Shown here piece by piece: positions 725 through 50,631 of a DNA stretch of 64,000 nucleotides. How positions within the stretch are numbered: position 1 is the first letter of the stretch; the number at the start of each line of letters is the position of its first letter. The position numbers and the translations under genes are program-made. The stretch covers positions 281,010-345,009 of the forward strand of contig CAWHWI010000003.1 in NCBI GenBank assembly GCA_963833025.1. Reading direction: 5' to 3'. The notes under the pieces are model-generated. The model was not told where the DNA came from. It worked only from the letters and a program-made list of their open reading frames with translations, and ran no database searches. Source of the DNA: an uncultured delta proteobacterium. GTDB lineage: Bacteria > Desulfobacterota > Binatia > Binatales > Binataceae.

Positions 725-1393
725 ATGGCGGAAAATCCGACGGTCAAACTCGGCGTCCTGATTTCCGGCAGCGGCACCAATCTGCAGGCTATCATCGACG
801 CGATTCTGCGCGGCGATCTCAAGGCTGAAATCCGTCTCGTCATATCGAATCGCACCGACGCCCATGGACTCGAGCGCGCGCGCCGCCACGGAATCGAGAC
901 CGCCGTCATCGACCATCGCAAGTTTGCGTCGCGCGAGGACTTCGACCGCGCCGTGCTCGCCGCGCTGCGCGATCGCTCCGTCGAGCTGGTCGCGCTCGCG
1001 GGCTTCATGCGCCTGATATCGCCCGTGATGCTCGACGCGTTCCCGGGCCGCATCATGAATATTCACAACAGCCTGCTGCCGTCGTTTCCCGGCATCCACG
1101 GGCCGAAGGACGCGCTCGAATACGGCGTCAAGATTGCGGGTTGCACTGTTTTCTTCGTCACGCCCGGCGTCGATGTCGGCCCGGTGATCGTGCAGGCCGC
1201 TGTGCCCGTGCTGCCCGGCGACGACGAACAACGCCTCGCGGCGCGCATCCTCCAACAAGAGCATCGCATCTTCCCGCACGCGATCGCGCTCTTTCAGCAG
1301 GGCCGCCTCGAGATTGAGGGACGCCGCGTTATCGTCAAGGGCGATTCGGCCAAGCCGAATTCCTCGCCGCTCGTGAATCCTCCGCTGGATTGA
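725..1393 (+). CDS. purN: phosphoribosylglycinamide formyltransferase
   Basis: 222 aa with GVLISGSGTNLQAII and the NIHNSLLPSFPG motif typical of PurN. It sits immediately downstream of purM. Confidence 0.9.
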   Translation: MAENPTVKLGVLISGSGTNLQAIIDAILRGDLKAEIRLVISNRTDAHGLERARRHGIETAVIDHRKFASREDFDRAVLAALRDRSVELVALAGFMRLISPVMLDAFPGRIMNIHNSLLPSFPGIHGPKDALEYGVKIAGCTVFFVTPGVDVGPVIVQAAVPVLPGDDEQRLAARILQQEHRIFPHAIALFQQGRLEIEGRRVIVKGDSAKPNSSPLVNPPLD

Positions 1394-1410
1394 TTCGCAA
1401 CAGGTGAAGA

Positions 1411-2094
1411 GTGAACACACTTTCCGCCATCGTGCCGATGCTCAACGAAGCGGCCACGATCACGAGCACGCTCGATGCGCTCCGGCGCGGCGCTCCCGAC
1501 GCGGAGATCGTCGTCGTGGACGGCGGCAGTATCGACGCAAGCGTCACGATAGCGCAACCGTTGTGCGACACCGTGATCAGCGCGTCGCGCGGCCGTGCGC
1601 GTCAGATGAACGCGGGCGCGCGCGCATCGCACGGCGACGCGTTGGTCTTCGTCCACGCGGATACAATAGTGCCTGCGACATTCGCGGCTGACATCGCGTC
1701 GACCTTGTCGAATCCCGCGATAGTCGGCGGACGCTTCGACGTGAAGCTCGACTCAAGCGCCGTCGTCTACCGGATCATCGGCGCGATGATCAGCCTCCGC
1801 TCGCGAATCAGCCGCACCGGCACCGGCGATCAGGCGATCTTCGTGCGGCGCGACGTCTTCGATCGCCTCGGCGGCTTTCCCGAGCTGGAGCTGTGCGAGG
1901 ATCTGGAATTCTCGCGACGCCTGAAGCGCGCCGGACGCGTCGCATGCCTGCGCACCCACGTGACGACCTCCGCGCGGCGATGGAATCGCGACGGAGTCGC
2001 GCGCACCGTGCTCAGAATGTGGCTGATTCGCGCGATGTACTTGATCGGCGTGCCGCCCGCTCGTCTCAAACGGATATACTCCGACACCCGCTAG
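1411..2094 (+). CDS. GT2 family glycosyltransferase (TIGR04283-like)
   Basis: 227 aa with an SAIVPMLNEA start and DGGSxD and ED motifs, consistent with the GT-A fold. Confidence 0.7.
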   Translation: MNTLSAIVPMLNEAATITSTLDALRRGAPDAEIVVVDGGSIDASVTIAQPLCDTVISASRGRARQMNAGARASHGDALVFVHADTIVPATFAADIASTLSNPAIVGGRFDVKLDSSAVVYRIIGAMISLRSRISRTGTGDQAIFVRRDVFDRLGGFPELELCEDLEFSRRLKRAGRVACLRTHVTTSARRWNRDGVARTVLRMWLIRAMYLIGVPPARLKRIYSDTR

Positions 2095-2133
2095 CCGTTA
2101 ATCCGCTGGACAGGCTTTTCCGCGCGGATAACA

Positions 2134-2430
2134 ATGGCATCAGCGAGGTACAACAACAACGTGGCGAAAGTCGAAGTGTACACCACCACCTACTGCCCCT
2201 TCTGCACGCGGGCCAAGAGCCTGCTCAAGAGCAAGGGCATCGCGTTCGATGAAATCGACGTGACCGACGACGACGCATTGCGCGAGAAGATGATCGAGAT
2301 GTCCGGCGGACGCCGCACGGTGCCCGAGATTTTCATCAACGGCAAGATTGTCGGCGGCTTCGACGAATTGAAGGCCCTCAACGACTCCGGCAAGCTCGAC
2401 GGTCTATTGGCCGAGTCGGCGCCAGCCTGA
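2134..2430 (+). CDS. grxC: glutaredoxin 3
   Basis: 98 aa with the CPFC active site in a thioredoxin fold (VEVYTTTYCPFCTRAK…TVPEIFINGKIVGGFDEL). Confidence 0.85.
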   Translation: MASARYNNNVAKVEVYTTTYCPFCTRAKSLLKSKGIAFDEIDVTDDDALREKMIEMSGGRRTVPEIFINGKIVGGFDELKALNDSGKLDGLLAESAPA

Positions 2431-2465
2431 ATCTTCAGCGGTCACCACTGAGGCGCAAATAAAGA

Positions 2466-2506
2466 CGGGCGCATCGCGGACTGTATCCGCGGCGCGCCCG
2501 CTTCGA
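2466..2506. terminator. GC-rich nested stem-loop between convergent grxC and a lipoprotein gene; possible bidirectional terminator
   Basis: Inverted repeats cgggcgc…gcgcccg enclose an inner cgcgga…tccgcg pair. There is no strong U-tract, so this is weak. Confidence 0.3.
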
Positions 2507-2527
2507 TCATTGTAGTATCGCGAACCG

Positions 2528-2971
2528 CTAGTTGCCGTTCGGCGACGCCACCATATTCTCGTTCATGTGATGCAACGCGTCGCGGTCAACCGACGAGTCG
2601 TATTTAATCGCTTTGGCCGTGACCGTGATCTGCGAGCCGTCGTTCGAGGTCGTCTGATTCTCGTCGACGATCGCGTCAATCGTATCCGGCCATTTTGCAA
2701 ATGCCATCGCCTTCAGCTTGTCGCTGATCTTGGCCTCGTCGATCGCATCGGGCGTGAACGGCACCGTATAAGTCAGGTCGCCGAGCTCCGAGTATGGCTT
2801 GCCGGCCGGCGGCGATTCCGTAGTGACCCAGATATGCGCCATGTCGACGCGATGCTCGAACACCTGCTGCTTTTGCACTTCCTGCTCGCGCGCGGCGGCA
2901 CAGCCGGAAATCCACAGCGCCAGTCCAATCGCCATCCAGGTTAGAATTTTCGAACGCATGTTGTTCCCCAT
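2528..2971 (-). CDS. hypothetical lipoprotein
   Basis: 147 aa with a signal peptide and lipobox (LALWISGC). Confidence 0.5.
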   Translation of the reverse strand: MGNNMRSKILTWMAIGLALWISGCAAAREQEVQKQQVFEHRVDMAHIWVTTESPPAGKPYSELGDLTYTVPFTPDAIDEAKISDKLKAMAFAKWPDTIDAIVDENQTTSNDGSQITVTAKAIKYDSSVDRDALHHMNENMVASPNGN

Positions 2972-3121
2972 CGGTCCCTTCTATCTACTTCGATTATAGT
3001 CGCAACCCTGCATTTGTCTAATCGCGAGCGGTCCCGTCCGGGACGAATTTATTCCATCGGATGATATGACGTGGCAAGCGCTCCGGTGTTCGTTCGTCGC
3101 CGTGACCGGTAGTATTCCCGC

Positions 3122-3958
3122 GTGACCAGATTTGCTGCCTGCTTCATCCTCGTCTTCGGAGAACTCGCCTGGGGCGGGCTCTTCGCGCTGGCGATTCCGC
3201 CTTTCTTCAACGTCGAGCGCGGCTTTTACAAATCGAGCGCTTCGGTCTACCTGGCCGCATCGATCACGACCGCCGTCGGCCTCGGATTGCTGGCGTTGCG
3301 TGGCGGCGCGTCCGCCGGTCCAGGCGCGGGCGCATTGTGGACGGCAGCCGCGCTGTGGACCCTGTCGAGTGCGGCAGTCGCCGTCTACCTATATACGTTG
3401 TGGACCGAAAACGGCTTCATCCGCGCGCGATCCTACGCGCTCGGCCTGGGCCTCGGCCTCCTCGCCCTGATCGCCAACGTGATGCTGCTGATGCCGCCCG
3501 GCTTCGGCGCCGCCGCGGCCGTCGCCTACGGACTCACCGCCATAACGTCGGCGCTGGTGCTGGGATTGGTCAGTGGCGCGATGCTGTTCGGCCATTGGTA
3601 CCTCATCGATCTCGAGATGCCGGTCGACTACCTGCGCACCTTCATCCGGCTGTTGGGAGTCGTGCTGGTCGCGGACCTCGTCGCACTCGGCCTCGCGATC
3701 GGATTGCCCGCAATCCTCGGCAGCGCCAGCTCCGCCGCCGCCGTGCAAGATCTATTCGCCTCGCATCTCGGACTACTCGCAGTTCGGCTGATACTCGGTC
3801 CAATCGCGACCATCGTGCTGGTCTGGATGTGCTGGCAGACGCTGAAAATCCCGCAGACGATGGCCGCAACCGGCCTGCTCTACATAGCAGTGATGTCAGT
3901 CCTGGTCGGCGAAATGCTCGGCCGCTTCATACTGTTTCGCACCGCAATCCCGCTGTGA
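3122..3958 (+). CDS. hypothetical polytopic membrane protein
   Basis: 278 aa beginning at GTG. It has multiple hydrophobic helices rich in Gly/Ala/Leu. Confidence 0.5.
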   Translation: MTRFAACFILVFGELAWGGLFALAIPPFFNVERGFYKSSASVYLAASITTAVGLGLLALRGGASAGPGAGALWTAAALWTLSSAAVAVYLYTLWTENGFIRARSYALGLGLGLLALIANVMLLMPPGFGAAAAVAYGLTAITSALVLGLVSGAMLFGHWYLIDLEMPVDYLRTFIRLLGVVLVADLVALGLAIGLPAILGSASSAAAVQDLFASHLGLLAVRLILGPIATIVLVWMCWQTLKIPQTMAATGLLYIAVMSVLVGEMLGRFILFRTAIPL

Positions 3959-4063
3959 CTCAGCATCGAACTCCTGATCTTAAGACAGCAAGGACCTTCT
4001 GATAATGTTTGGTTCGGCCGGCGTTGGAGCGCGAGCACGCGAAGGTTTTTCCCTGCGCGAACA

Positions 4064-5101
4064 ATGCCCGGTGTCCCAAAGATGGCGACAACCATGCATT
4101 TCACTTCTTCTCAAGATGGTCGTCTTTTCCACACTACCGGCTTCGGAAAAGTCCGGGTTGGTCCTCTCCTCGCAGATATCGCGACCGGCTCGCGCTGGGC
4201 AGAAGATGAGAACGACCAGTTTCCATCGGACCAACAGTGGTCTGATGCGTTCGAGCAAATGATGAGCTGGTTCTCGGGAACATTTCCAACGCAATACCAA
4301 CAACGCGTTATCAACCGCTTGCGCGGCACCCGGCGCGCGCGTGACGAAACTTTCGCCGAAATTATTGCTGCTTATTTCATTGAGCGCGCTTGTGGTTATT
4401 CGGTCACAGATTGGGAACCTGAATTCGGTCAAAGCAACACTGCCGATTTCACGATTGTTGTCCCCCTGCGAACATGCTCGCCGGAAATCTTGGTAGAGGT
4501 AAAAGCCCCTAGTTGGACGGGTGAACGGTCACAGGAGATCCAAGAGCGAATCAAGAGCTTGAAAGCGCGGCGTCTCAGTGCCGGCGACCGCGAGAGTCAA
4601 GCTGAACTGGATGCTTGCTTGATAAACGAGAGACATTCTCTGAGGCGGATAAACTCGCAACGCAAGTATGGAGACGATCCAAAATCTAAATCATTTGACT
4701 TTCGCGACGATGTGGAGCGCGCCCTTGTCAAGACATGCTTTGCGGACGATGCCGAAACTCCTCGGTTACCGAGTGAACGTCCCACCTTGCTCGTAGTAGT
4801 CGACGACTTGGAGTTGGAAATGCACGAGTCGGGCGGCGAGTTCTCGGTGAAGCGCAGCCTTTATGATCAGCCAAGTGTGCCGGTTTACCCGCGCGGGCTC
4901 TTCTTGGATACGCGCTTCAATCGACTTAGCGGGCTGGCTACGATGGGAAGATGGTGGTTACACGAAAGACGCAATCCTGAAAAGTTCTTCTCCGTGTTCC
5001 CGCACTTTAGGGCGTTACCCGAATGCCGTTTGCCAAATGGGGCGTTCTCGGACTTCCTGGCGGATCTTAGCCTCTTCACAGCCGATCCCCGGGCTGCCTA
5101 A
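4064..5101 (+). CDS. hypothetical protein in a low-GC insertion; possible PD-(D/E)xK-like nuclease core
   Basis: 345 aa. Local GC is about 52% against about 65% in the flanks. The segment ADFTIVVPLRTCSPEILVEVKAP has a D…ExK arrangement reminiscent of PD-(D/E)xK. I do not recognise the family. Confidence 0.45.
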   Translation: MPGVPKMATTMHFTSSQDGRLFHTTGFGKVRVGPLLADIATGSRWAEDENDQFPSDQQWSDAFEQMMSWFSGTFPTQYQQRVINRLRGTRRARDETFAEIIAAYFIERACGYSVTDWEPEFGQSNTADFTIVVPLRTCSPEILVEVKAPSWTGERSQEIQERIKSLKARRLSAGDRESQAELDACLINERHSLRRINSQRKYGDDPKSKSFDFRDDVERALVKTCFADDAETPRLPSERPTLLVVVDDLELEMHESGGEFSVKRSLYDQPSVPVYPRGLFLDTRFNRLSGLATMGRWWLHERRNPEKFFSVFPHFRALPECRLPNGAFSDFLADLSLFTADPRAA

Positions 5102-5130
5102 GGCGATCCGCACTTTGAGTACGGGCAGCG

Positions 5131-5478
5131 CTAAACACTCTTCGCTAACTTCTCCGCGACCAACGCGTTCAAGCTGATTCCCGCGCGCTCTGCCTCGATG
5201 GCAAGTGCGCGATGTACTCGCTTATCAACGCGGACCTGAAAGATGCCGTGGTACTGTCGCCGCGCAGGCGCCGCCGGAACCTCGACACCGCGGGCCGCGT
5301 AGGATTCCTTCGCGGCCGCCCAGGCTACATCCAGTGCCTTGAGCGCCTTCTCGGGAGTTGGACCGAATGCCGAAATTCTCGGCAGTTCAACCAGGTGAGC
5401 CAGCCAGTCGTTATCCTCATCGAGGAACAGCTCAACCGCATACGCGCCGAAACGATCTTGCTCTTTTTTCTTGGCTAT
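5131..5478 (-). pseudogene. HicB-family antitoxin-like gene (N-terminal HicB fold plus C-terminal RHH); no canonical start codon
   Basis: The minus-strand frame is open from 5517 to 5131. It encodes …DRFGAYAVELFLDEDNDWLAHLVELPRISAFGPTPEKALKAL…YHGIFQVRVDKRVHRALAIEAERAGISLNALVAEKLAKSV*. It contains no ATG, GTG or TTG upstream of the HicB domain. An ATA codon at 5476-5478 sits where a start is expected, with GGA upstream. The gene is absent from the ORF track for this reason. Confidence 0.5.
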
Positions 5479-5497
5479 TGATCCAGATCCCGCTTCC

Positions 5498-7387
5498 CTA
5501 GTGCACGAAGTTGCCGCCTATCAGGTAAACCGGCCCCTGGTAGGTATTGATGGCGAGCCCATTGTTGCCGAAGCGGATTATCCGAAGCGGAGTAGTCGAA
5601 ACATTCGGGATCGTGATCGAACCGATCAGACTGAATTCCCTCAAGTTGAAACTCTGGATCGTGCCCGACGAGTCGACGAAGAACGCTTCGTTCAGAGTGG
5701 AGTCGGGCACCATCACGTTGTTGAACCCTGCCGAATACTGCCCAACCGGACCTCCCGTCGATGGATTGATGACATGGCCGTCATCCGAGTAGACGAAACC
5801 GGTCCCGGAATCGAAGTGAATTCTTGCGCCGAACTCGTCAAAGTCATTTGAAAAGTCATCCGCCAATACGACTCCGCCTGAGGTCACCGAAAGGATATAG
5901 AAGTCGAAGCCGGTATCTTCGTTGTTCTCCGCGTACAACGCGGTGTCATCGGATCCCCACTGAAGCGAATCGTACAGAACACCTCCACCACCGCCTGGGC
6001 CGAATCCTTTAGCGATGGTCGGACGCGGCGTGGAATTATCGTAGATTACGATTCCTCCCTGTGCCGCCGGACTTTCACCCATAACCGCGAGGGTGACTGC
6101 CGTGGTTTGAGGCGCGCTCGGCGCGACCTGGAGGTCGAGCGCAAAGTACGGGCCAGCAAAACTGCTGCGGCCCAGAGGATAGCTTATGTCTGTCGCCAGG
6201 CCCGGCAGCGTGAAGCGTTGGACCGTCGACGCTCCGTCGAGCCCGGCGTAGAGGAACGAGCTGTCATCCGAGATCGCGAGCACGTCCGGCTCGCTGCCGG
6301 CGAACTGCGAGGTCGATATTTGCCCCGTCGCCAGGTTGAGTACCGAGATATTGTTGCCATTGGTCGGCGCACTGCCAGGCACTGAGAGATAAATCACCCC
6401 GTTGACCGGATCGTTCACGATGTCATTGGACTGCTGATTGATCACCAGTTCCGCATATCCGGGGCCGCCAGTGCTTCCGACGAAAAATATTTCCGGCGCC
6501 GACACCACCGAGTTCGCCGCGACGGTCACTTGATCCACCCCGACGTTGGTGATGTCAGCCGAGGGAATCGTCGTGTTCACCTGGTTCGACGAAACGAAAC
6601 TCGTGGTCTGCCCGACTCCGTTCCATTGAATCGTGGTTGATGCCGTCAGGTTGCATCCGCATGCAGTCAGCGGGAAATCCGAGCCGCCCGCCACACCCGA
6701 ACTCGGAATCAACGACGAGACCGACGGTGGACCCGACGGCGAACATGCCCCCGGGGCCGGGTTCGGACACACTATCGGCGTCGGCGTGGCCGTCGGAGTT
6801 GCGGTCGCGGTCGCTCCCGTCACGGTTGCAGTCGCGGTAGCCGTCGCAGTCGCTGTGGCGGTAGCAGTCGCCGTGGCGGTTGCAGTCGGTGTTGCGGTCG
6901 CGGTTGGAGTGGCGACTGGTGCGCCGATGCCTTCGCCTTTCAGACTTACACTGAGCGGTTTGCCGGCGCTGTTGACGACCATCAGCTTTGTCGACTTCTT
7001 GCCATCGGAAGATGGGGTGAAGACGACCGACTCGACGCAATCACCCCCCGCTGCCAGGCTGGCCACACAGTTAGCTGAGGGAACGAACTCGGGGTCCAGC
7101 GCAACGATCGAACTGATATCGATCGCGCCTGAATTCGGGTTGTGAATCGTTACGGTAACCGGCGCGCTCCGCTCAAGCGGTGCAAGCTCGCCAAAGTTGA
7201 GCTTCTTCGGAGAAGCTGTAAGCGCTTTCGGCTTTTTGGTCTTCGTGAAAGGACCCTCGCTGGCGCTTTGCGCAGACGAGCGGGTCACTACTCCGCCTAT
7301 CACGATCAGGAGTGCAAACGAGGAAAGCAAAAGCAACAACAACACCTTCGAGGCAGCCGATGGCCGCGTCGACGACTTAAACCGCAT
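5498..7387 (-). CDS. secreted repeat-containing protein with a (Thr-Ala/Pro)n linker and a beta-propeller-like C-terminal region
   Basis: 629 aa. It has a signal peptide (LLLLLLSSFALLIVIGG) and a low-complexity ATPTATATATATATAT linker. The C-terminal half is rich in Gly/Ser/Asp. Confidence 0.6.
   Translation of the reverse strand: MRFKSSTRPSAASKVLLLLLLSSFALLIVIGGVVTRSSAQSASEGPFTKTKKPKALTASPKKLNFGELAPLERSAPVTVTIHNPNSGAIDISSIVALDPEFVPSANCVASLAAGGDCVESVVFTPSSDGKKSTKLMVVNSAGKPLSVSLKGEGIGAPVATPTATATPTATATATATATATATATATATVTGATATATPTATPTPIVCPNPAPGACSPSGPPSVSSLIPSSGVAGGSDFPLTACGCNLTASTTIQWNGVGQTTSFVSSNQVNTTIPSADITNVGVDQVTVAANSVVSAPEIFFVGSTGGPGYAELVINQQSNDIVNDPVNGVIYLSVPGSAPTNGNNISVLNLATGQISTSQFAGSEPDVLAISDDSSFLYAGLDGASTVQRFTLPGLATDISYPLGRSSFAGPYFALDLQVAPSAPQTTAVTLAVMGESPAAQGGIVIYDNSTPRPTIAKGFGPGGGGGVLYDSLQWGSDDTALYAENNEDTGFDFYILSVTSGGVVLADDFSNDFDEFGARIHFDSGTGFVYSDDGHVINPSTGGPVGQYSAGFNNVMVPDSTLNEAFFVDSSGTIQSFNLREFSLIGSITIPNVSTTPLRIIRFGNNGLAINTYQGPVYLIGGNFVH
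6786..6925. repeat. hexanucleotide tandem repeat (GCNGTN)n inside a CDS, encoding a (Thr-Ala)n linker
   Basis: About 23 tandem 6-nt units are visible in the sequence (gcggtcgcggtcgctcccgtcacggttgcagtcgcggtagcc…). Confidence 0.7.
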
Positions 7388-7574
7388 GTAAACTATCTGT
7401 CCCCCACCCCCGAATTATTCTGCACTATGTGGCTATCGCAGTTTCGAATCGCGCGCAAGGACAAACGCACGCTGGCTGGCTGACTCGCAGTTGATGCGCC
7501 TCACCCCCAGCAATCGCCGGCATGCCCGAAGAGCCGCCGACGCTAACTGATCCGACAGCCGAACCAGCCTCGAA

Positions 7575-8309
7575 TCAATTACCCGGCTTTATCGCTACCT
7601 GCGCGGCGACCCAGTTGTAAAACTGGGCAGCGACGCTGACTTGAGGATCGGTTTGGCCCATCTGACTCTGAGAGCTCGCCAGAATCCAATATTCGAGCCC
7701 AGTGGCCTCCTGATTCAGGACTACGCTCTCGTTTTCCGGCAGCGTTGGATTCAGTCCGCCACATATTCCGCAGCTGGCGCCGCGGAAGGAGCCGAAATCA
7801 GTCGCGTCGAAAGCAAGGATAAGGTCCCCGTCGCTGGTCGTCGTAACGGATTTGGCCGTGATCGTTCCGTTCAAGCCGCCGGTGTTGCCGCTGCTCGCAT
7901 CCACCGGGGCATCTGACGCAACATTGTCCAGCACCACGACCGCGCCTTGCGCATCCACCGGCTCGCTGAATGTCCATTCCGCAGTGCCGGGGTCGCCGCC
8001 CCCGGTTGTGTGCCAATAGAGCGTCTGCCGGGTCGTCGGGGTAAAGTCGTCGCGGATAAGCTCCCATCCGTCGGGCGCGGTGATCGTCGGTCTCGGACCG
8101 CCGTAGGTTAATACGTCGGCAATCGCGACCTGGCCGTTTTGCGTACTTTGGGCCAAGTCCAGCGCAAGACTCGTCGTCCCCTTCATGATTGGCGCTTGCG
8201 CGGAAGAGACTACGCTGGCGCCTCCCGTCGTGTTTTCAGCGCCTGCCGACGAAAAATTGAATGCGACCAGAAAAACCGCAGCGACCCCTATCAACGTGGC
8301 TCTCATCAT
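7575..8309 (-). CDS. secreted hypothetical protein
   Basis: 244 aa with an N-terminal signal peptide (LIGVAAVFLVAFNFSSAGA) and a Thr/Gly/Asp-rich body. Confidence 0.5.
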   Translation of the reverse strand: MMRATLIGVAAVFLVAFNFSSAGAENTTGGASVVSSAQAPIMKGTTSLALDLAQSTQNGQVAIADVLTYGGPRPTITAPDGWELIRDDFTPTTRQTLYWHTTGGGDPGTAEWTFSEPVDAQGAVVVLDNVASDAPVDASSGNTGGLNGTITAKSVTTTSDGDLILAFDATDFGSFRGASCGICGGLNPTLPENESVVLNQEATGLEYWILASSQSQMGQTDPQVSVAAQFYNWVAAQVAIKPGN

Positions 8310-8398
8310 TGTCCCTCTCTTTCAGCCAGTGGCCATCGCCATCTTAGCATTTTCAAACGATCTCGCGAACTGGAAAGATGCGACCTCGCCAAGTGCAG

Positions 8399-8418
8399 TC
8401 TGGCGCGCCCGGAGGGAT
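8399..8418. repeat. 20-bp direct repeat of the 3' end of tRNA-Arg(TCG); putative attachment-site scar of a small TA islet
   Basis: The 20 nt tctggcgcgcccggagggat at 8399-8418 are identical to 9378-9397, which cover CCA, the discriminator, the acceptor arm and part of the T arm of the tRNA at 9379-9455. Confidence 0.6.
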
Positions 8419-8455
8419 ACAATGCAGTTCAGCTTGGTTTTGCTTCTGAGGCGGT

Positions 8456-8524
8456 CTTGACCAACACAGTGCATGTACGTACGTTGTGAACCTAGGAGAT
8501 ACTGTGTGAGGAGGAGAGAACGCA
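8456..8524 (+). promoter_or_regulatory. candidate promoter, operator and RBS of the TA operon
   Basis: TTGACC, then 17 nt, then TACGTT. A palindrome gtacgtac overlaps the -10 element. GAGGAGGAGA sits 8 nt before the ATG. Confidence 0.3.
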
Positions 8525-8794
8525 ATGGCTTCCTTGAAAGCCAGGAGAATTAATCTTCGGACAACGCCGGAACAGGACGCTTTGATTCGGCGGGCTGCTG
8601 AGGTACAGCGCAAATCTGTCAGCGAATTCGTTCTGGAGTCCGCCTGCAGGTCCGCCGAAAGTGCTCTCTTCGACGCCAAAACTTTCATGTTCGATAAGCA
8701 AGGGTGGAAGCAGTTCAACGACACTTTGAACCGCAAAGCCAAGGCTATTCCTGAGTTGGTTGAGTTGTTCCGGGAAACTGCGCCTTGGGATTAG
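8525..8794 (+). CDS. DUF1778-family type II antitoxin (TacA-like)
   Basis: 89 aa with a ribbon-helix-helix-like N-terminus (RINLRTTPEQDALIRRAAE…SVSEFVLES). It lies 4 nt upstream of a GNAT toxin gene. Confidence 0.8.
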   Translation: MASLKARRINLRTTPEQDALIRRAAEVQRKSVSEFVLESACRSAESALFDAKTFMFDKQGWKQFNDTLNRKAKAIPELVELFRETAPWD

Positions 8795-8797
8795 CCG

Positions 8798-9334
8798 GTG
8801 CCGCTTGGAAGGCCCCGACCCATGGAAGCCGGCGACGTGCCTCTCGCACAATCATTCGACTGCGGCGTTCCGGCTCTCAATAAGTGGCTCCAGAACTATG
8901 CTTGGCAGAATCACAATAGTGGTGGTGCCCGCGTTTATCTCTCGATAGACCAGGACACCAAACAAATCGCTGGCTATTTCTGCCTGTCCGCAGCCAGTGT
9001 CGATTACAAATCTGCGCCCGCCCGAGTGATTCGTGGTCTCGCGCAACACGAGATTCCTGTCGCACTCGTCGGCAGACTTGGAGTTGACGAACGCTATCGG
9101 GGCCGTAAGCTTGGGCGCTTTCTCATTCTAGAGGCGTTCCGCCGAGTCCTCGAAGCTGCGGACACGATGGGTGTTCGCGCAGTCATTGTTGTCGCTAAGG
9201 ACGATGATGCAGCGGAGTTTTACAAAAAGCTTGGATTTGAGGTCTCCGTAGACAACCCAAGGCTATTCTTTATCACACTGAAAGATGCCAGAAAGTCTTG
9301 TGCGGATGCAGGTCCGCAAAACCGATCTACGTGA
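8798..9334 (+). CDS. GNAT family acetyltransferase toxin (TacT/AtaT-like)
   Basis: 178 aa with the GNAT motif RYRGRKLGRFLILEAF. It starts at GTG 8798, with an alternative ATG at 8822. It is coupled to the DUF1778 gene. Confidence 0.75.
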   Translation: MPLGRPRPMEAGDVPLAQSFDCGVPALNKWLQNYAWQNHNSGGARVYLSIDQDTKQIAGYFCLSAASVDYKSAPARVIRGLAQHEIPVALVGRLGVDERYRGRKLGRFLILEAFRRVLEAADTMGVRAVIVVAKDDDAAEFYKKLGFEVSVDNPRLFFITLKDARKSCADAGPQNRST

Positions 9335-9378
9335 TGACCAGCAGCACGGATTTCTCTTCTGTCAGTTAGCTTTGGTAT

Positions 9379-9455
9379 CTGGCGCGCCCGGAGGGATTCG
9401 AACCCCCAACCCTCAGATCCGAAGTCTGATGCTCTATCCAGTTGAGCTACGGGCG
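9379..9455 (-). tRNA. tRNA-Arg (anticodon TCG), CCA encoded
   Basis: Read 5'->3' on the minus strand: GCGCCCGTAGCTCAACTGGATAGAGCATCAGACTTCGGATCTGAGGGTTGGGGGTTCGAATCCCTCCGGGCGCGCCA. It has a 7-bp acceptor stem, a T-loop TTCGAAT, and anticodon loop cTTCGga. Confidence 0.85.
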
Positions 9456-9564
9456 CTGGCGTGATCGACATCGAACCCGACGAGTCTAGGCACGCATGCC
9501 GGGGCGTGCAACCAATGCCTCCCCACAGCGTACGGTCTGTTGACTCGCACGTCCGCTCATTCAA

Positions 9565-12109: not shown

Positions 12110-13234
12110 ATGTTCGGGCTCAAATTCCTCGCCATCATGCGCCGCGACCTCAAAAAGCTGACGCGCAATCCCATCACGCTGATCTCGGTCATCCTGATGC
12201 CGATCGTTTATCTGGTGATTATCGGCAACTCCTTCCAGGGCCAGCTCAAGCATCTGCCCATCGTCGTCGTCGAGCAGGATCACGGCCTCTTCGCCCGCCG
12301 AATCGTCGAACAGTTGCTGGCGCTGCAGGCGGGGCCGAAAACCGTCGATGTCACCTTCGAGAACGATCCCGGAAATGCCGTCGACGAAGTCCGCAACGGC
12401 CTCTACAAGGGCGTCGTCGTCATTCCGCCCGACTTCAGCCACGACGTCGCCGAAGGCCGCATCGCGCAGATAGGGCTGTTCACCGACAACGTCGACAGCA
12501 TCAGCTCCGAGACGCTCGAAAGCGTGCTCGACTCGGCCGCCGCCACCGTCAGGGTTGCCTTCGTCACCGCGCGCGAGCCCAAGCTCAACGACATCTCGCT
12601 GCGCCCGAGCTGGCTGTTCCCCTACGTGGACTACGATCGCTCGCTCATCCCCGGCGTCATCGTGATGGCCATCTTCATGGGCTCGCTGATGTCCGGCGTG
12701 TTCAACTGGGTGATGGACAAATTCATGGGCGTCACGGAATGCTACCTGGTGACTCCGCTCTCGCGATGGGACATCGCCGGCGGCATCCTCGCCAGCGGCG
12801 TAACGGTAACCAGCGTCGGCGGCATACTGGTCTTGTTCCTGGGCCTGATGATCACGCGCGGCCGAATCCTCGGCGGACCCGTGGCGCTATTGATGCTGAT
12901 TGGAATAATCGTCATCAGCGCGACCGGTCTGCTAGCGATGACCTTCTCGATGCTAGGCCGCGCGGGCCATCCGCGCCTGGTCGGGACGTTCTCGGGATTT
13001 CTGAACGTGATCCTGTTCTTCCCCAGCGGCGCGATTTACCCGGTCGAAAGTTTCCCACCATGGCTAAGAGCCTTCGCGCACTTCAATCCCGAAACTCATT
13101 CGGTAAGCGCGATAAAACAGATCCTCTTCAAAGGCGCAGACTTCACAGCAGTAAGCGGCGACATAGCATTCCTGCTGGTCTTCATGGTCCTGATGCTGAT
13201 ACTAGCCAGCGTATCCTTCAAACGCACCCTGTAA
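12110..13234 (+). CDS. ABC-2 family transporter permease
   Basis: The ATG at 12110 is preceded by GAGGAGAG. The listed ORF 11705..13234 has an Arg-rich N-terminal extension that overlaps the ATPase gene and is read-through. About six TM segments are present. Confidence 0.75.
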   Translation: MFGLKFLAIMRRDLKKLTRNPITLISVILMPIVYLVIIGNSFQGQLKHLPIVVVEQDHGLFARRIVEQLLALQAGPKTVDVTFENDPGNAVDEVRNGLYKGVVVIPPDFSHDVAEGRIAQIGLFTDNVDSISSETLESVLDSAAATVRVAFVTAREPKLNDISLRPSWLFPYVDYDRSLIPGVIVMAIFMGSLMSGVFNWVMDKFMGVTECYLVTPLSRWDIAGGILASGVTVTSVGGILVLFLGLMITRGRILGGPVALLMLIGIIVISATGLLAMTFSMLGRAGHPRLVGTFSGFLNVILFFPSGAIYPVESFPPWLRAFAHFNPETHSVSAIKQILFKGADFTAVSGDIAFLLVFMVLMLILASVSFKRTL

Positions 13235-13273
13235 GTCTTTGACGTTGCCGCGGATGCGTAGACATTCGCCTTC

Positions 13274-13434
13274 CCCCTTTCCAAAATGGAAAAGGGGCCA
13301 GGAGGATAGGACGCAACGATCCTCATAACTCTTCCCGTTCTCCTACCCGCAACGAGAAGGGGTTAGGGTTAGGGATTAAGGGTTAAGGGTTAGGGTTTAG
13401 GGTTACGGTTTAGGGTTAGGATTCAGGGTTTAGG
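13274..13434. repeat. intergenic element: perfect hairpin followed by a degenerate (GGGTTA)n telomere-like tract
   Basis: The hairpin is cccctttcca-aaa-tggaaaagggg (13274-13297). It is followed by gggttagggttagggattaagggttaagggttagggtttagggttacggtttagggttagg (13358-13434). It lies between convergent genes. Confidence 0.7.
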
Positions 13435-13625
13435 TCATCCCGCATCATTGGCGATTCCCGCCGCGCCGCAGTTCTTCCCCTCTCCCGAAGGGAGAGGATC
13501 GAAGGTGAGGGACCTTATTCAGCGCGAGTTCCGCGCGCGATTCAAGATTCTGCATTCCTTCCCTGCCATTCGAGAAACTCACGACGAAAACGAACCAAGC
13601 GACTTAAGTTGGCAGTGGCTTCGGC

Positions 13626-14364
13626 TTACGGTTTCGTTGTTCCGTCCGTAATAGCGGGGAGATTAGCGTCTTGGCCGTCAGCGGGTGTGTCTGCTGTGCT
13701 AGCTTCTGTTGTTGACTCTTGAGTCTTGTCAGTTTGGGCCGCGGCGACCGCGAGTTCTTGAACATATTGCTTTACATCCTCGAGGGCCGCGTTATCGGCC
13801 ATTTGATGTTTGAGTTGGGCACCGATGTAGATGTCTCCTAGTCGACCAATGACATTCGCATTGATAGAAACATAGGAGCCGAGCTGTGGGCCGACAATAA
13901 ACATGTCGGTTCCTTCTCCAACTCCAGGTGCGACTTCGGCGCGTTTCTTTGCTGAGAAAGTGTGATACAGCGCAACTTCGCCTACTTTTGCTCTTGTGTG
14001 TTTAGCGAACATGAGTTGCGAGGCTGCGTGCCAATATCCCACACCAATGGCGGCGAAACCCACGTCTAACATCGTAAAGGATTTCTGTCTGTATCGCGGT
14101 TTCACCCGCCATCATGACCGCAATGGAATTGGTCAAAGTAAGAATCTTCGTTTGAGGTGGCTCGAATTCAATATCACCACTAGTGATCATTCGATCCGAT
14201 GCACCAATCACCGTGTCCTCAGTGCAAATGGTTGCAACGCATACCGTTATGGGAGTACCGCCCCTTAGGACGCCCTTGGTTTCGGTCCCACCATGCGTCC
14301 AGGACGCGGACGATACTCTCTGCCGCGCCTGTGTCAAGTGAAAAATCCTCTCCCTGTTAGGCAA
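13626..14364 (-). pseudogene. proteasome-type / Ntn-hydrolase (Anbu- or HslV-like) gene disrupted by a frameshift
   Basis: ORFs 14002..14364 and 13626..14105 overlap by 104 nt in different frames. The upstream ORF has GG|TPITVCVATICTEDTVIGASDRMITSGD, which resembles a pro-peptide followed by an N-terminal Thr. This region is low-GC. The start codon is TTG at 14364. Confidence 0.5.
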
Positions 14365-49593: not shown

Positions 49594-50271
49594 TCAGAGC
49601 TGGGCGTGCGCGGCAGGAATTTCCTCGACTCTGGCCGCAAAGCGATTCGCCGCCGGCCTCAACCGATCGGAATTGTCGAACCGGATAGTCAGATAGTTGT
49701 CCGGGCTTTCGATCCTCAACCGATGAACGTTCGAGGTTAGCTTCGCCAGCGCTTCCCCTTCGAGAATCATCGGCTGAACCCATGGCAGACCCTGACCGGG
49801 GCATTCGAGATACGGATACTCGACGGGCGCGCCGGCGTTGACGAAGCCCATAGCGGTGTAAAATCCGCCATGACTTCCGACCGCCAGATAGACCAGCACC
49901 GCGCGCGGGTTTCGTCGAACAACCTGAACCGCGATACCGCGCCAGGCATGCATACCGGCGCCGCGCGTCAGCGACCAATGGTCGCTGCACTCCAAAACGG
50001 ACCGAGGCGCGAGATGCGAGAGATCAGGCTCGCGACAGCTTTGCGGAAAGGCCTCGAGGTTATGCAGCGCGACACCGGCCGTCATGCGTTCCGCTGGGTC
50101 ATGTTCTGTCTCGAACAACCCGCAAATATCCGCGGCGTTCAGACGAACCATATTTGCGGCACGGGTGGCGCCCGCATCCTGGTAGCTGGCGCCATGCCGG
50201 GCGCGCGCGTCGGCTAGTCGTTGGGCGAAAACGCTTCGTTCGCCTTCTGTGGTTAAGAGGCGCAATTCCAT
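49594..50271 (-). CDS. putative FeeM/OlsB-like N-acyltransferase (Acetyltransf_5, GNAT superfamily)
   Basis: 225 aa. The N-terminus LRLLTTEGERSVFAQRLADARARHG resembles the L.VRLA.TE.E…AQRLRY motif of N-acyl amino acid synthases. It is co-oriented and adjacent to the desaturase. The assignment is tentative. Confidence 0.45.
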   Translation of the reverse strand: MELRLLTTEGERSVFAQRLADARARHGASYQDAGATRAANMVRLNAADICGLFETEHDPAERMTAGVALHNLEAFPQSCREPDLSHLAPRSVLECSDHWSLTRGAGMHAWRGIAVQVVRRNPRAVLVYLAVGSHGGFYTAMGFVNAGAPVEYPYLECPGQGLPWVQPMILEGEALAKLTSNVHRLRIESPDNYLTIRFDNSDRLRPAANRFAARVEEIPAAHAQL

Positions 50272-50631
50272 TGGTAATCTCCTTTTTTCTGATGAGCGAT
50301 TGCAAAAATGGACGGCAAAAATGGAAGGGGAGGTGCGGCTGGATCAACGCGCAGGCGGCCCGCGGGGTGTCGGAATTATCGGGCGGCGATACTGAACCGT
50401 AAAAACTTGACTCTTTAGCGGTCCGAATTTCGCACATCCGATCATTGGAACAGTAGACCTGGGGTCACTTTTAGCTCCATTCGCTAACACAGAGTCAACA
50501 GGTGGCACGAAAAAATCTCGGCTTCTTTTCCCGGCCTGTTTTATGTTAAGTAAACAATACGTTGGCAGCGTCTAGACAGGTTGTGTTGATTTTACAGAAC
50601 CAATGTCAAGTCTGCTGAAGGAGTCGCGACA

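Follow-up and report, generated by a model that had tools for sequence, protein, structure and literature searches.

PD-(D/E)xK enzymes share a core in which the secondary-structure elements follow the order alpha-beta-beta-beta-alpha-beta. Proteins such as YraN (UPF0102), SfsA and the Hjc-like nucleases place a glutamate in a helix of this core, an acidic residue in strand 2 and an E-V-K motif in strand 3, with short spacing between them. Shedu (SduA, DUF4263) stands for the single-gene PD-(D/E)xK defence nucleases, whose solitary genes probably have a patchy distribution in variable regions. HicAB is a type II toxin-antitoxin (TA) system encoded by hicA-hicB operons, and some TA genes lie in islets linked to tRNA genes. 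Here we describe a locus in the genome of an uncultured bacterium of the Binataceae (GenBank assembly GCA_963833025.1) at which the gene for a predicted nuclease of this superfamily stands next to a hicB gene without hicA. The analysed stretch, called the window below, covers 64,000 nt of contig CAWHWI010000003.1 (positions 281,010 to 345,009), and all coordinates without a locus number refer to it; L numbers denote the compared loci. With moderate confidence, we explain the locus as a whole by two independent events, insertion of the nuclease gene and orphaning of hicAB, in a variable region anchored at a tRNA-Arg gene. The nuclease gene and its surroundings are laid out as follows.

4094..5101, plus strand: nuclease coding sequence, 335 aa, predicted PD-(D/E)xK type, TAA stop codon at 5099-5101; the longest open reading frame (ORF) starts at 4064 and has 345 aa
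4358..4504, plus strand: predicted catalytic core, with E99 at 4358-4360, D128 at 4445-4447 and E145-V-K147 at 4496-4504
3959..5102, plus strand: inserted segment of about 1.14 kb, made of a 135-nt leader and a single coding sequence; the site is empty in relatives
3122..3958, plus strand: gene for a 278-aa multi-pass membrane protein, the left flank of the insert, syntenic in all relatives; GC content at third codon positions (GC3) 0.81
5103..5123, plus strand: right target copy, a relic of the 3' end of the 278-aa gene, GCGATCCGCACTTTGAGTACG

The initial annotation, made from the sequence alone, gave the nuclease as a 345-aa protein encoded at 4064..5101. This ORF exists, but its start is most likely 4094. 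Close homologues begin with MHF or MRF and support the ATG at 4094, the nucleotide homology between the different contexts of the gene begins about 25 nt upstream of this codon at a AAGGATGG-like Shine-Dalgarno box, and AAAGATGG lies 9-16 nt upstream of the ATG. The Logan gene call P0310 is identical to 4094-5101 (335 aa). On the homologue starts and this independent call, 4064 was rejected as the true start; the residue numbers of the motif (E99, D128, E145 and K147) nevertheless follow the 345-aa numbering. The public database entry of the protein is too short, at 279 aa (start M66; 4262-5101), and a spurious out-of-frame ORF of 85 aa has been called upstream of it at 4005-4262.

The protein has 29 close homologues at 53-77% identity, all labelled "hypothetical". 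When 1.84 billion cluster representatives were searched exhaustively with HMMER, 184 relatives passed E<=1e-3, mostly proteins of 250-300 aa, and a profile search of an index of 5.8 billion proteins gave almost no further ones. The family occurs in Binatota, Acidobacteriota (Terriglobia and others), Methylomirabilota/Rokubacteria, Omnitrophota, Atribacterota, Wallbacteria and delta-proteobacterial metagenome-assembled genomes; the window holds no second copy. The initial annotation had recognized no domain in the protein, and searches of Pfam, NCBIfam, PADLOC and PHROGs likewise gave no match. When 116 family members were compared with Pfam, no credible match was found, and three of them touched SfsA (best E 0.0024). 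The PD-(D/E)xK-like motif noted before is present, and it is conserved in the family. E99, D128, E145 and K147 are invariant among the close homologues. In the 116-sequence alignment, E99, W117, E145, V146, K147, P149, W151 and K201 are conserved in at least 90% of members, and most aligned relatives shown have D or E at position 128. The family signature is RDE.[LF]AE...WEP...G[ED]F...[FV]EVK.P[GS]W. Against the copies in three other genomes (L001, L002 and L007), the ratio of non-synonymous to synonymous substitution rates (dN/dS) is 0.14-0.24, a value which, as far as sequence comparison goes, indicates that the gene is functional and under purifying selection.

A model of the fold was made with AlphaFold2. 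The alignment of 25 close homologues gave a predicted local distance difference test score (pLDDT) of 54.9, and this model was replaced by one built on the 116-sequence alignment, with pLDDT 93.8 and a predicted template modelling score (pTM) of 0.91. In the latter, a helix at 80-98 that carries the glutamate is followed by strands at 103-107, 119-122 (D) and 131-137 (E-V-K), by a long helical hairpin at 141-188 and by a strand at 231-238 that ends in DD; the core is preceded by a beta-hairpin/helical part at the N-terminus and extended at the C-terminus. The order of these predicted elements fits the alpha-beta-beta-beta-alpha-beta core. E99 in the helix, D128 in strand 2 and E145-x-K147 in strand 3 would bind Mg2+ and cut the phosphodiester bond. 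The two top profile matches in the PDB are a YraN-like UPF0102 protein (3fov, E 0.013) and SfsA (4da2, E 0.032), which are both PD-(D/E)xK proteins and are aligned exactly over the catalytic motifs. By structure, the best Foldseek match in the PDB is FokI (E 0.018), followed by SwaI, MspJI, BamHI, PaqCI, AddB and the arenavirus L endonuclease, and PD-(D/E)XK, HamA and Cas4 proteins are among the top, non-significant, matches in the viral library BFVD. The protein is predicted to be a member of a rare, previously undescribed family of PD-(D/E)xK enzymes.

Several results weigh against this assignment and against a role in defence. Neither by structure nor by sequence does any known nuclease match the protein with statistical significance, Foldseek gives nothing at E<=1e-3 in the PDB or BFVD, and SfsA reaches only E 0.79 when the profile is built from sub-alignment A6. 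No PADLOC or Pfam defence model (including DUF4263 and DUF1837) matches the nuclease. The initial annotation had named structure prediction as a check of its nuclease reading; the order of the core elements in the AlphaFold2 model is compatible with that reading, and the Foldseek scores stay short of the threshold above.

The gene lies in an insertion. The initial annotation had described the interval 3960-5520 as an AT-rich insertion of about 52% GC that separates the membrane-protein gene from a large secreted-protein gene. The coordinates confirm the position between the 278-aa gene and a 629-aa secreted-protein gene. The interval is indeed AT-richer than its flanks, but it has 55.5% GC (ORF 54.0%; window mean 60.7%), and about 52% is reached only in 300-nt sub-windows (0.513). 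With 54.4% GC, the insert (3959-5130) is at the 2.6th percentile among equal-sized windows, not far outside the variance of the window. Equal or deeper dips occur at 12600-14100 and at about 50000-50500 (to 51.7-53% in windows of 1.2-1.5 kb), the first of which overlaps an ABC-2-type permease region and a small low-GC3 ORF. The GC dip alone was therefore rejected as proof of foreign origin. GC3 is more telling, at 0.574 in the nuclease gene and 0.77-0.86 in the flanking core genes, and it is similarly low in nuclease homologues of other genomes.

The gene order purM-purN-GT2-glutaredoxin-147aa-278aa is common to the relatives L010, L011 and L012 at 81-86% nucleotide identity, and the gene tables of L044 and L045 agree in that the 278-aa gene adjoins hicB. 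For the left flank, L009-L012 show this order with 81-83% nucleotide identity. In these five relatives the nuclease gene is absent and the site is empty, with 14, 12 and 55 nt (L010-L012, L044 and L045) between the stop codons of hicB and the 278-aa gene. Two further relatives, L009 and L046, carry different insertions at the same spot, and the site is therefore a hot spot. The left target copy, GCAATCCCGCTGTGA at 3944..3958, comprises the final codons and the stop codon of the 278-aa gene, and two synonymous changes are all that separates it from the L044 allele, GCAATCCCACTTTGA. Directly after the nuclease TAA, the relic at 5103-5123 (GCGATCCGCACTTTGAGTACG) matches the empty site of L044, GCAATCC-CACTTTGAGTACG, that is, the last codons, the stop codon and the first bases of the spacer, with one substitution and one indel; its score was equalled in 1 of 500 shuffles. 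Because this relic of the gene end follows the nuclease stop codon, the bounds of the insert were set at 3959-5102. About 15 nt of the target appear to be duplicated, and the divergence of the copies fits an old target duplication. There are no terminal inverted repeats or tRNA-derived repeats at the ends of the insert. In the proposed course of events, a one-gene cassette of about 1.14 kb entered the extreme 3' end of the 278-aa gene and would have left a relic of about 15-21 nt of this end past its own stop codon. From the sequence comparison we conclude that this is a real single-gene insertion, which synteny and GC3 prove independently of the GC dip.

The second event concerns hicB, on the opposite strand. 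Its features, and the predicted operator of its relatives, are these.

5478..5131, minus strand: hicB, 115 codons and a TAG stop codon, with ATA at the start position 5478-5476
5464..5469, minus strand: A6 homopolymer in hicB codons 4-5
5479..5497, minus strand: 19-nt junction from the stop codon of the 629-aa gene to the hicB start position, where hicA sits in relatives
Candidate HicB operator sequence in relatives (predicted): TGTAACTATATAAAGTTACA

The protein matches the Pfam family HicB (PF05534) with 44.3 bits (cut-off 21; E 1.7e-11). More than 140 homologues carry PF05534, and the closest are 80-90% identical, are exactly 115 aa long and start with MAK or MAR. Comparison with the PDB gave nothing by sequence and only non-significant matches to HicB and ribbon-helix-helix proteins by profile. 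The frame is open from stops at 5523-5518 and contains no ATG, GTG or TTG until a TTG at 5172. The ATA aligns exactly with the ATG of the 115-aa homologues, and GGA lies 3 nt upstream. The initial annotation had read a HicB-type gene without a usual start codon in the same way, and had described it as convergent with the nuclease gene; in addition, it follows the 629-aa gene in the same direction at a distance of 19 nt. hicB is missing from the public gene calls of this genome.

There is no hicA in the 64-kb window (tblastn best E 2.5), in line with the earlier remark that the partner is absent. A search of relatives, which had been proposed along with that remark, found it there: a 79-aa hicA overlaps hicB by 8 nt in L010-L012, L045 and L046, and likewise on the partial contig of L044. 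This hicA starts with TTG (L010 4769-5008) and is uncalled in L010-L012, where a 46-aa antisense ORF is called instead. The order in the relatives is tRNA-Arg, promoter with palindrome, hicA, hicB. In L010, L045 and L046, the 3' end of tRNA-Arg is directly followed by TTGACA, a spacer, TATA(A/T)A and then hicA (L010 4732-4765), and an invariant 20-bp palindrome, TGTAACTATATA[A/C]AGTTACA, overlaps this promoter-like pair. Since the start codon of hicA lies only about 10 nt past the -10 box, the palindrome is likely to be a HicB operator and the mRNA may be near-leaderless; by analogy with other HicB ribbon-helix-helix repressors, too, the palindrome is probably the operator. The window has neither the TTGACA...TATAAA promoter nor the palindrome. 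Homology to the relatives breaks about 2-10 nt upstream of the hicB start, and blastn homology (L009, L010 and L012) runs from 5480. The interval 3800-5700 yielded neither a sigma-70-like promoter nor an intrinsic terminator, and there is no terminator-like site between the 629-aa gene and hicB. Transcription of hicB would need read-through from the 629-aa gene, and hicB is most likely silent or barely translated.

The coding sequence of hicB shows signs of decay. On its branch, 8 unique changes are non-synonymous and 9 synonymous, compared with 16 and 61 for five relatives together (Fisher p 0.034). They include M1I, D11G, G12A, G34R and E48A; D11, G12 and E48 are 94-97% conserved in 120 homologues, and R34 occurs in none of the 120. 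The gene is probably an orphaned antitoxin gene, recently freed from selection, whose decay has just begun, as judged from its sequence. The decay that the initial annotation had considered thus fits hicB, which has lost hicA, the promoter and the palindrome and carries an excess of unique non-synonymous changes. Some observations count against this reading. The ORF is intact over 115 codons, and the pairwise dN/dS of hicB, 0.08-0.10, is no higher than among relatives, so any relaxation must be recent. hicA may be present elsewhere in the genome, beyond the 64 kb searched. In L009, hicB keeps its ATG without hicA, which means that an orphan hicB can persist and that hicB of the window may retain some function.

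It is possible, but doubtful, that hicB is still functional, either by low-level translation from the ATA or by coupling to the 629-aa ORF, as a transcription factor or as an orphan antitoxin whose role would be anti-addiction against an incoming hicA. In Escherichia coli, AUA supports initiation at about 1-2% (0.02-3%) of the AUG level (bioRxiv 10.1101/063800). The GGA 3 nt upstream and the stop codon of the preceding ORF 19 nt away are compatible with translation, as are the intact frame, the low pairwise dN/dS and the orphan in L009. However, besides the start codon, hicB has lost the 3' end of hicA with its Shine-Dalgarno sequence, the promoter and the operator palindrome; it has substitutions at positions that are 94-97% conserved and an R34 seen in no homologue; and one assembly has a frameshift in the A-run.

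The region in which both events took place begins at a tRNA gene, and three further features belong to it.

5498..7387, minus strand: gene for a 629-aa secreted protein with a signal peptide, choice-of-anchor D/Z domains and a Thr-Ala repeat
8399..9397: tacA/tacT cassette, with tacA/tacT at 8525-8794 and 8798-9334 (Pfam TacA1, GNAT)
9380..9456, minus strand: tRNA-Arg(TCG), found with ARAGORN, the anchor of the variable region 3959-9379

From the 278-aa gene to tRNA-Arg(TCG), the sequence is variable among relatives and has a lower GC3 (0.54-0.66 in tacA, tacT and hicB, about 0.69 in the 629-aa and 244-aa genes). The match to L009 ends at 9380, exactly at the 3' end of tRNA-Arg. The tacA/tacT pair (DUF1778/GNAT) lies between two perfect copies of 20 nt from this 3' end (8399-8418 and 9378-9397), and by these repeats the stretch is a 979-bp integrated cassette or the remnant of an islet. 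No integrase domain was found with Pfam and NCBIfam in the island ORFs scanned. In L009, tRNA-Arg(TCG) and its flank are repeated in tandem at 4789-4937, 5720-5868 and 8166-8243 (two complete copies and one partial), and the first pair brackets hicB (ATG, no hicA) together with a 95-aa gene. This suggests repeated integrations at the tRNA-Arg of L009.

We propose an ancestral layout of tRNA-Arg, hicAB and the 278-aa gene that was invaded on both sides of hicB in the window. On the side away from the nuclease, a rearrangement would have introduced tacAT together with the genes for the 244-aa and 629-aa proteins, while the promoter, the palindrome and hicA were lost through it. Its breakpoint would lie within about 10 nt of the hicB start, and the start codon is now ATA. 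A simple inversion relating the window to L010 was rejected, since the orientation of the tRNA does not fit.

The 629-aa protein matches NCBIfam NF058597 and NF012200, and its Thr-Ala repeat is encoded by a degenerate tandem array of 6/12/18 nt at 6766-6926. In L010 a homologue of its gene (1273-3076, 69% nucleotide identity) lies on the far side of tRNA-Arg in reversed orientation and looks split into ORFs of 399 and 158 aa. Apart from the tRNA, no Rfam elements were found.

As to the role of the nuclease, a stand-alone defence or selfish endonuclease is most likely. We infer a stand-alone enzyme because the gene is solitary, patchily distributed and compositionally foreign, often lies among TA-type genes and has no methyltransferase or immunity partner. 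The genomic contexts of the family were compared at 31 loci from GTDB species representatives, in which neighbours were clustered by BLAST and 114 of them were scanned with Pfam. No conserved neighbour or partner was found across these loci. A methyltransferase is neither adjacent to the gene in the window nor conserved in the 31 loci, two of which (L026 and L033) have type I restriction-modification (R-M) genes. The copies in L001, L002 and L007 are about 80% identical at the nucleotide level, and the sequence that they have in common with the window is the ORF with about 25 nt; the flanks are unrelated. The L001 copy adjoins rplM-rpsI-argC, the L002 copy lies inside an element with serine recombinases and a PIN gene, and the L007 copy adjoins metabolic genes. 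Among the upstream neighbours in the wider set are sufB/D (three loci), fabH, aldehyde dehydrogenase, HtrA-like proteases, hsdS and PIN, and the downstream neighbours include PIN and DUF2283. A stand-alone accessory endonuclease would have to pick its target alone, such as modified DNA, DNA ends or certain structures, and would serve defence or selfish functions. By analogy, it might discriminate its substrate as Type IV restriction enzymes or Shedu do; since no model matches, the protein lies outside these two families.

Other results speak against a defence role in particular. A minority of the loci have an obvious defence or mobile context, several family genes follow sufB/D, fabH or aldehyde dehydrogenase genes, and no relatives were found in IMG/VR, the PLSDB plasmids or the GenBank phages. 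With so few loci in such settings, defence is a role that we infer.

Three side observations were made on the family. In L019, L022 and L027 (Terriglobia), the gene lies right behind sufB/sufD in the same direction, with gaps of 7-59 nt. Two members are annotated as fusions (P0266 and P0268), with a C-terminal MNT-type nucleotidyltransferase (PF01909) in one and an N-terminal DUF2442 in the other; both domains are typical of small TA-like genes, and the fusions may be read-through gene calls. Two paralogues (L017 and L042) lie about 110 kb apart on the Terriglobia contig CAWGKL010000003.1.

A housekeeping or accessory nuclease of DNA repair or recombination, comparable to Hjc, YraN, SfsA or NucS and acting on branched or damaged DNA, is an unlikely alternative. 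The best profile likeness is to YraN and SfsA, and the short D-to-ExK spacing and the EVK motif resemble the Hjc/NucS-like group. The co-directional, tightly spaced position behind housekeeping genes in several loci would also suit such a function, as would purifying selection. What argues against it is that the gene is missing at the same locus in closely related genomes and has a foreign codon composition, that the family, with 184 clusters in 1.8 billion representatives, is uncommon and patchily distributed, and that its contexts are variable and rich in TA genes.

We give little credence to the idea that the gene is a selfish, self-propagating cassette, homing-endonuclease-like or self-inserting, whose product cuts empty sites or mediates insertion. 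It is present or absent at an otherwise conserved hicB/278-aa site, homology between contexts is confined to the ORF and about 25 nt, the 3' end of the target appears duplicated at the edge of the insert, and there are two copies on one contig. In addition, imperfect direct repeats of 18-29 nt flank some family members, clearly in L034 and L020 and more weakly in L029, L037, L016/L015 and L033. One copy of the 29-nt repeat in L034 falls within the 3' end of the PIN gene upstream (5828-5856), and the other follows 60 nt past the nuclease stop codon (6807-6834); in L020, the 18-nt repeat TAGCATCYGCACATGKAC lies at the start codon (5914-5931) and at the stop codon/next start (6772-6789). Such repeats reached p<=0.05 against control windows from the same locus in 7 of the 31 loci (binomial 7e-4; exploratory), and matched flanks outscored mismatched ones (Mann-Whitney 8e-5; exploratory, with some loci, namely L015 and L016, non-independent). 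Together with the relic at 5103-5123, the repeats suggest an insertion that duplicates 15-30 nt of the target, for which a staggered cut or Campbell-type integration via short homology would be possible routes. On the other side, the sites differ among genomes (L001, L002 and L007), unlike homing into one allele, and the gene is free-standing, without an intron, intein, terminal inverted repeats or recombinase. It is also stable behind sufB/D in three Terriglobia genomes. Recent spread is not evident, because the synonymous divergence (dS) of the nuclease, 0.4-0.7, resembles that of core genes. In a narrower form, which we regard as very unlikely, the cassette would be a new minimal mobile element consisting of the ORF only, whose PD-(D/E)xK nuclease drives its own insertion at gene 3' ends or short spacers and thereby duplicates 15-30 nt of the target. 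If true, such an element would be a bacterial chromosomal counterpart of free-standing homing endonuclease genes, without recombinase, intron or intein.

For hicB, a sequencing or assembly artefact that hides a true ATG has a very small chance of being correct. DNA methylation can give systematic base-calling errors, a GATC motif lies 4 nt upstream of the ATA, and the naming of the contigs suggests long-read assemblies; a platform-specific systematic error is conceivable at the read level, and the adjacent homopolymer differs in one assembly. The initial annotation had called for a check of ATG versus ATA at 5476-5478. The ATA is present in three assemblies, namely the window and the Logan assemblies L008 (ERR11523669) and L047 (SRR28023468), which are 99.98% identical to the window over 5.5 kb and 100% identical over 2,972 nt, respectively. 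An artefact is unlikely because the ATA recurs in these Logan assemblies of two separate runs. The sole difference of L008 over the 5.5 kb is A5 in place of A6 in hicB codons 4-5, where L047 has A6. A5 would frameshift hicB; it may stem from a sequencing error in the homopolymer or represent a second polymorphism that inactivates the gene.

A two-gene module, with the nuclease as toxin or defence effector and the HicB-like protein as its antitoxin or regulator, is extremely improbable: the genes are adjacent, with 32 nt between their stop codons, hicA is missing and the region around both is variable and low in GC, but they are convergent and not operonic, the relatives pair this hicB with a classical hicA (8-nt overlap) without the nuclease gene, none of the 3 other Binataceae contexts and none of the 31 wider loci has hicB beside the nuclease gene, and the adjacency arose by insertion into a spacer. 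HicB as the antitoxin of the nuclease was therefore rejected on the hicA partner in relatives and the lack of nuclease-hicB co-occurrence. The adjacency of the two genes is coincidental, and of the decaying or novel module proposed initially, the combined module falls away.

Our study describes a protein family whose fold is predicted with confidence, which is maintained by selection and which has a textbook nuclease motif; it is absent from Pfam, NCBIfam, PADLOC and PHROGs and is found in soil phyla that are hard to culture (Binatota, Acidobacteriota, Methylomirabilota, Atribacterota and Omnitrophota). Should the protein act as a stand-alone nuclease in defence or for selfish ends, the single-gene immune repertoire would gain a family, and the protein could supply new DNA-cutting specificities. 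The locus also shows the order in which hicAB broke up, with the toxin and the promoter lost first and the start codon of the antitoxin afterwards. Furthermore, it reveals faults of annotation, namely the nuclease shortened to 279 aa, the uncalled hicB and the uncalled TTG-start hicA of the relatives. Neither the hicB part nor the notion of a combined module is remarkable.

Compared with described systems, the hicB part is the more familiar. Its product is 80-90% identical to HicB proteins of hicA-hicB operons with an 8-nt overlap, and it differs from them in having no hicA, promoter or palindrome, an ATA start and substituted conserved residues. Like tRNA-linked TA islets, the variable region of the window begins at a tRNA 3' end, has a 20-nt repeat and a lower GC3; unlike them, it shows no integrase in the scanned ORFs, and the nuclease cassette has no flanking repeats derived from the tRNA.

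The catalytic domains of FokI, SwaI, MspJI, BamHI and PaqCI are the top Foldseek matches of the nuclease, at non-significant scores (E 0.018-2; template modelling scores of 0.15-0.2). In contrast to restriction endonucleases, the family has no conserved R-M neighbourhood, and 2 of the 31 loci adjoin type I R-M genes. As with Type IV enzymes such as MspJI, the nuclease gene lacks an adjacent methyltransferase. The window protein has no recognizable reader domain for DNA modification. Searches of PADLOC-DB v2 (including Shedu and Hachiman HamA) gave no family at E<=1 for the nuclease, HicB, 629-aa or 244-aa proteins. The window protein thus has no match to the PADLOC Shedu model, or to Pfam DUF4263, even at E<=1, and it would resemble Shedu in being a solitary, patchily distributed PD-(D/E)xK-type gene of similar size in variable regions. 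With YraN (UPF0102), SfsA and the Hjc-like proteins it shares the helix glutamate, the acidic residue of strand 2, the E-V-K of strand 3 with short spacing and, by prediction, the core. It differs from them in length (335 aa against about 120-230 aa; profile E only 0.013-0.03), in an added N-terminal beta-hairpin/helical region, a long helical hairpin that separates strand 3 from strand 4 and extra C-terminal sequence, and in the EVK-x-P-[GS]-W motif of its own family. No Pfam or NCBIfam model matches the protein. The hicB remnant is ordinary, and the novelty of this locus is the nuclease family, an unannotated branch of a well-known superfamily.

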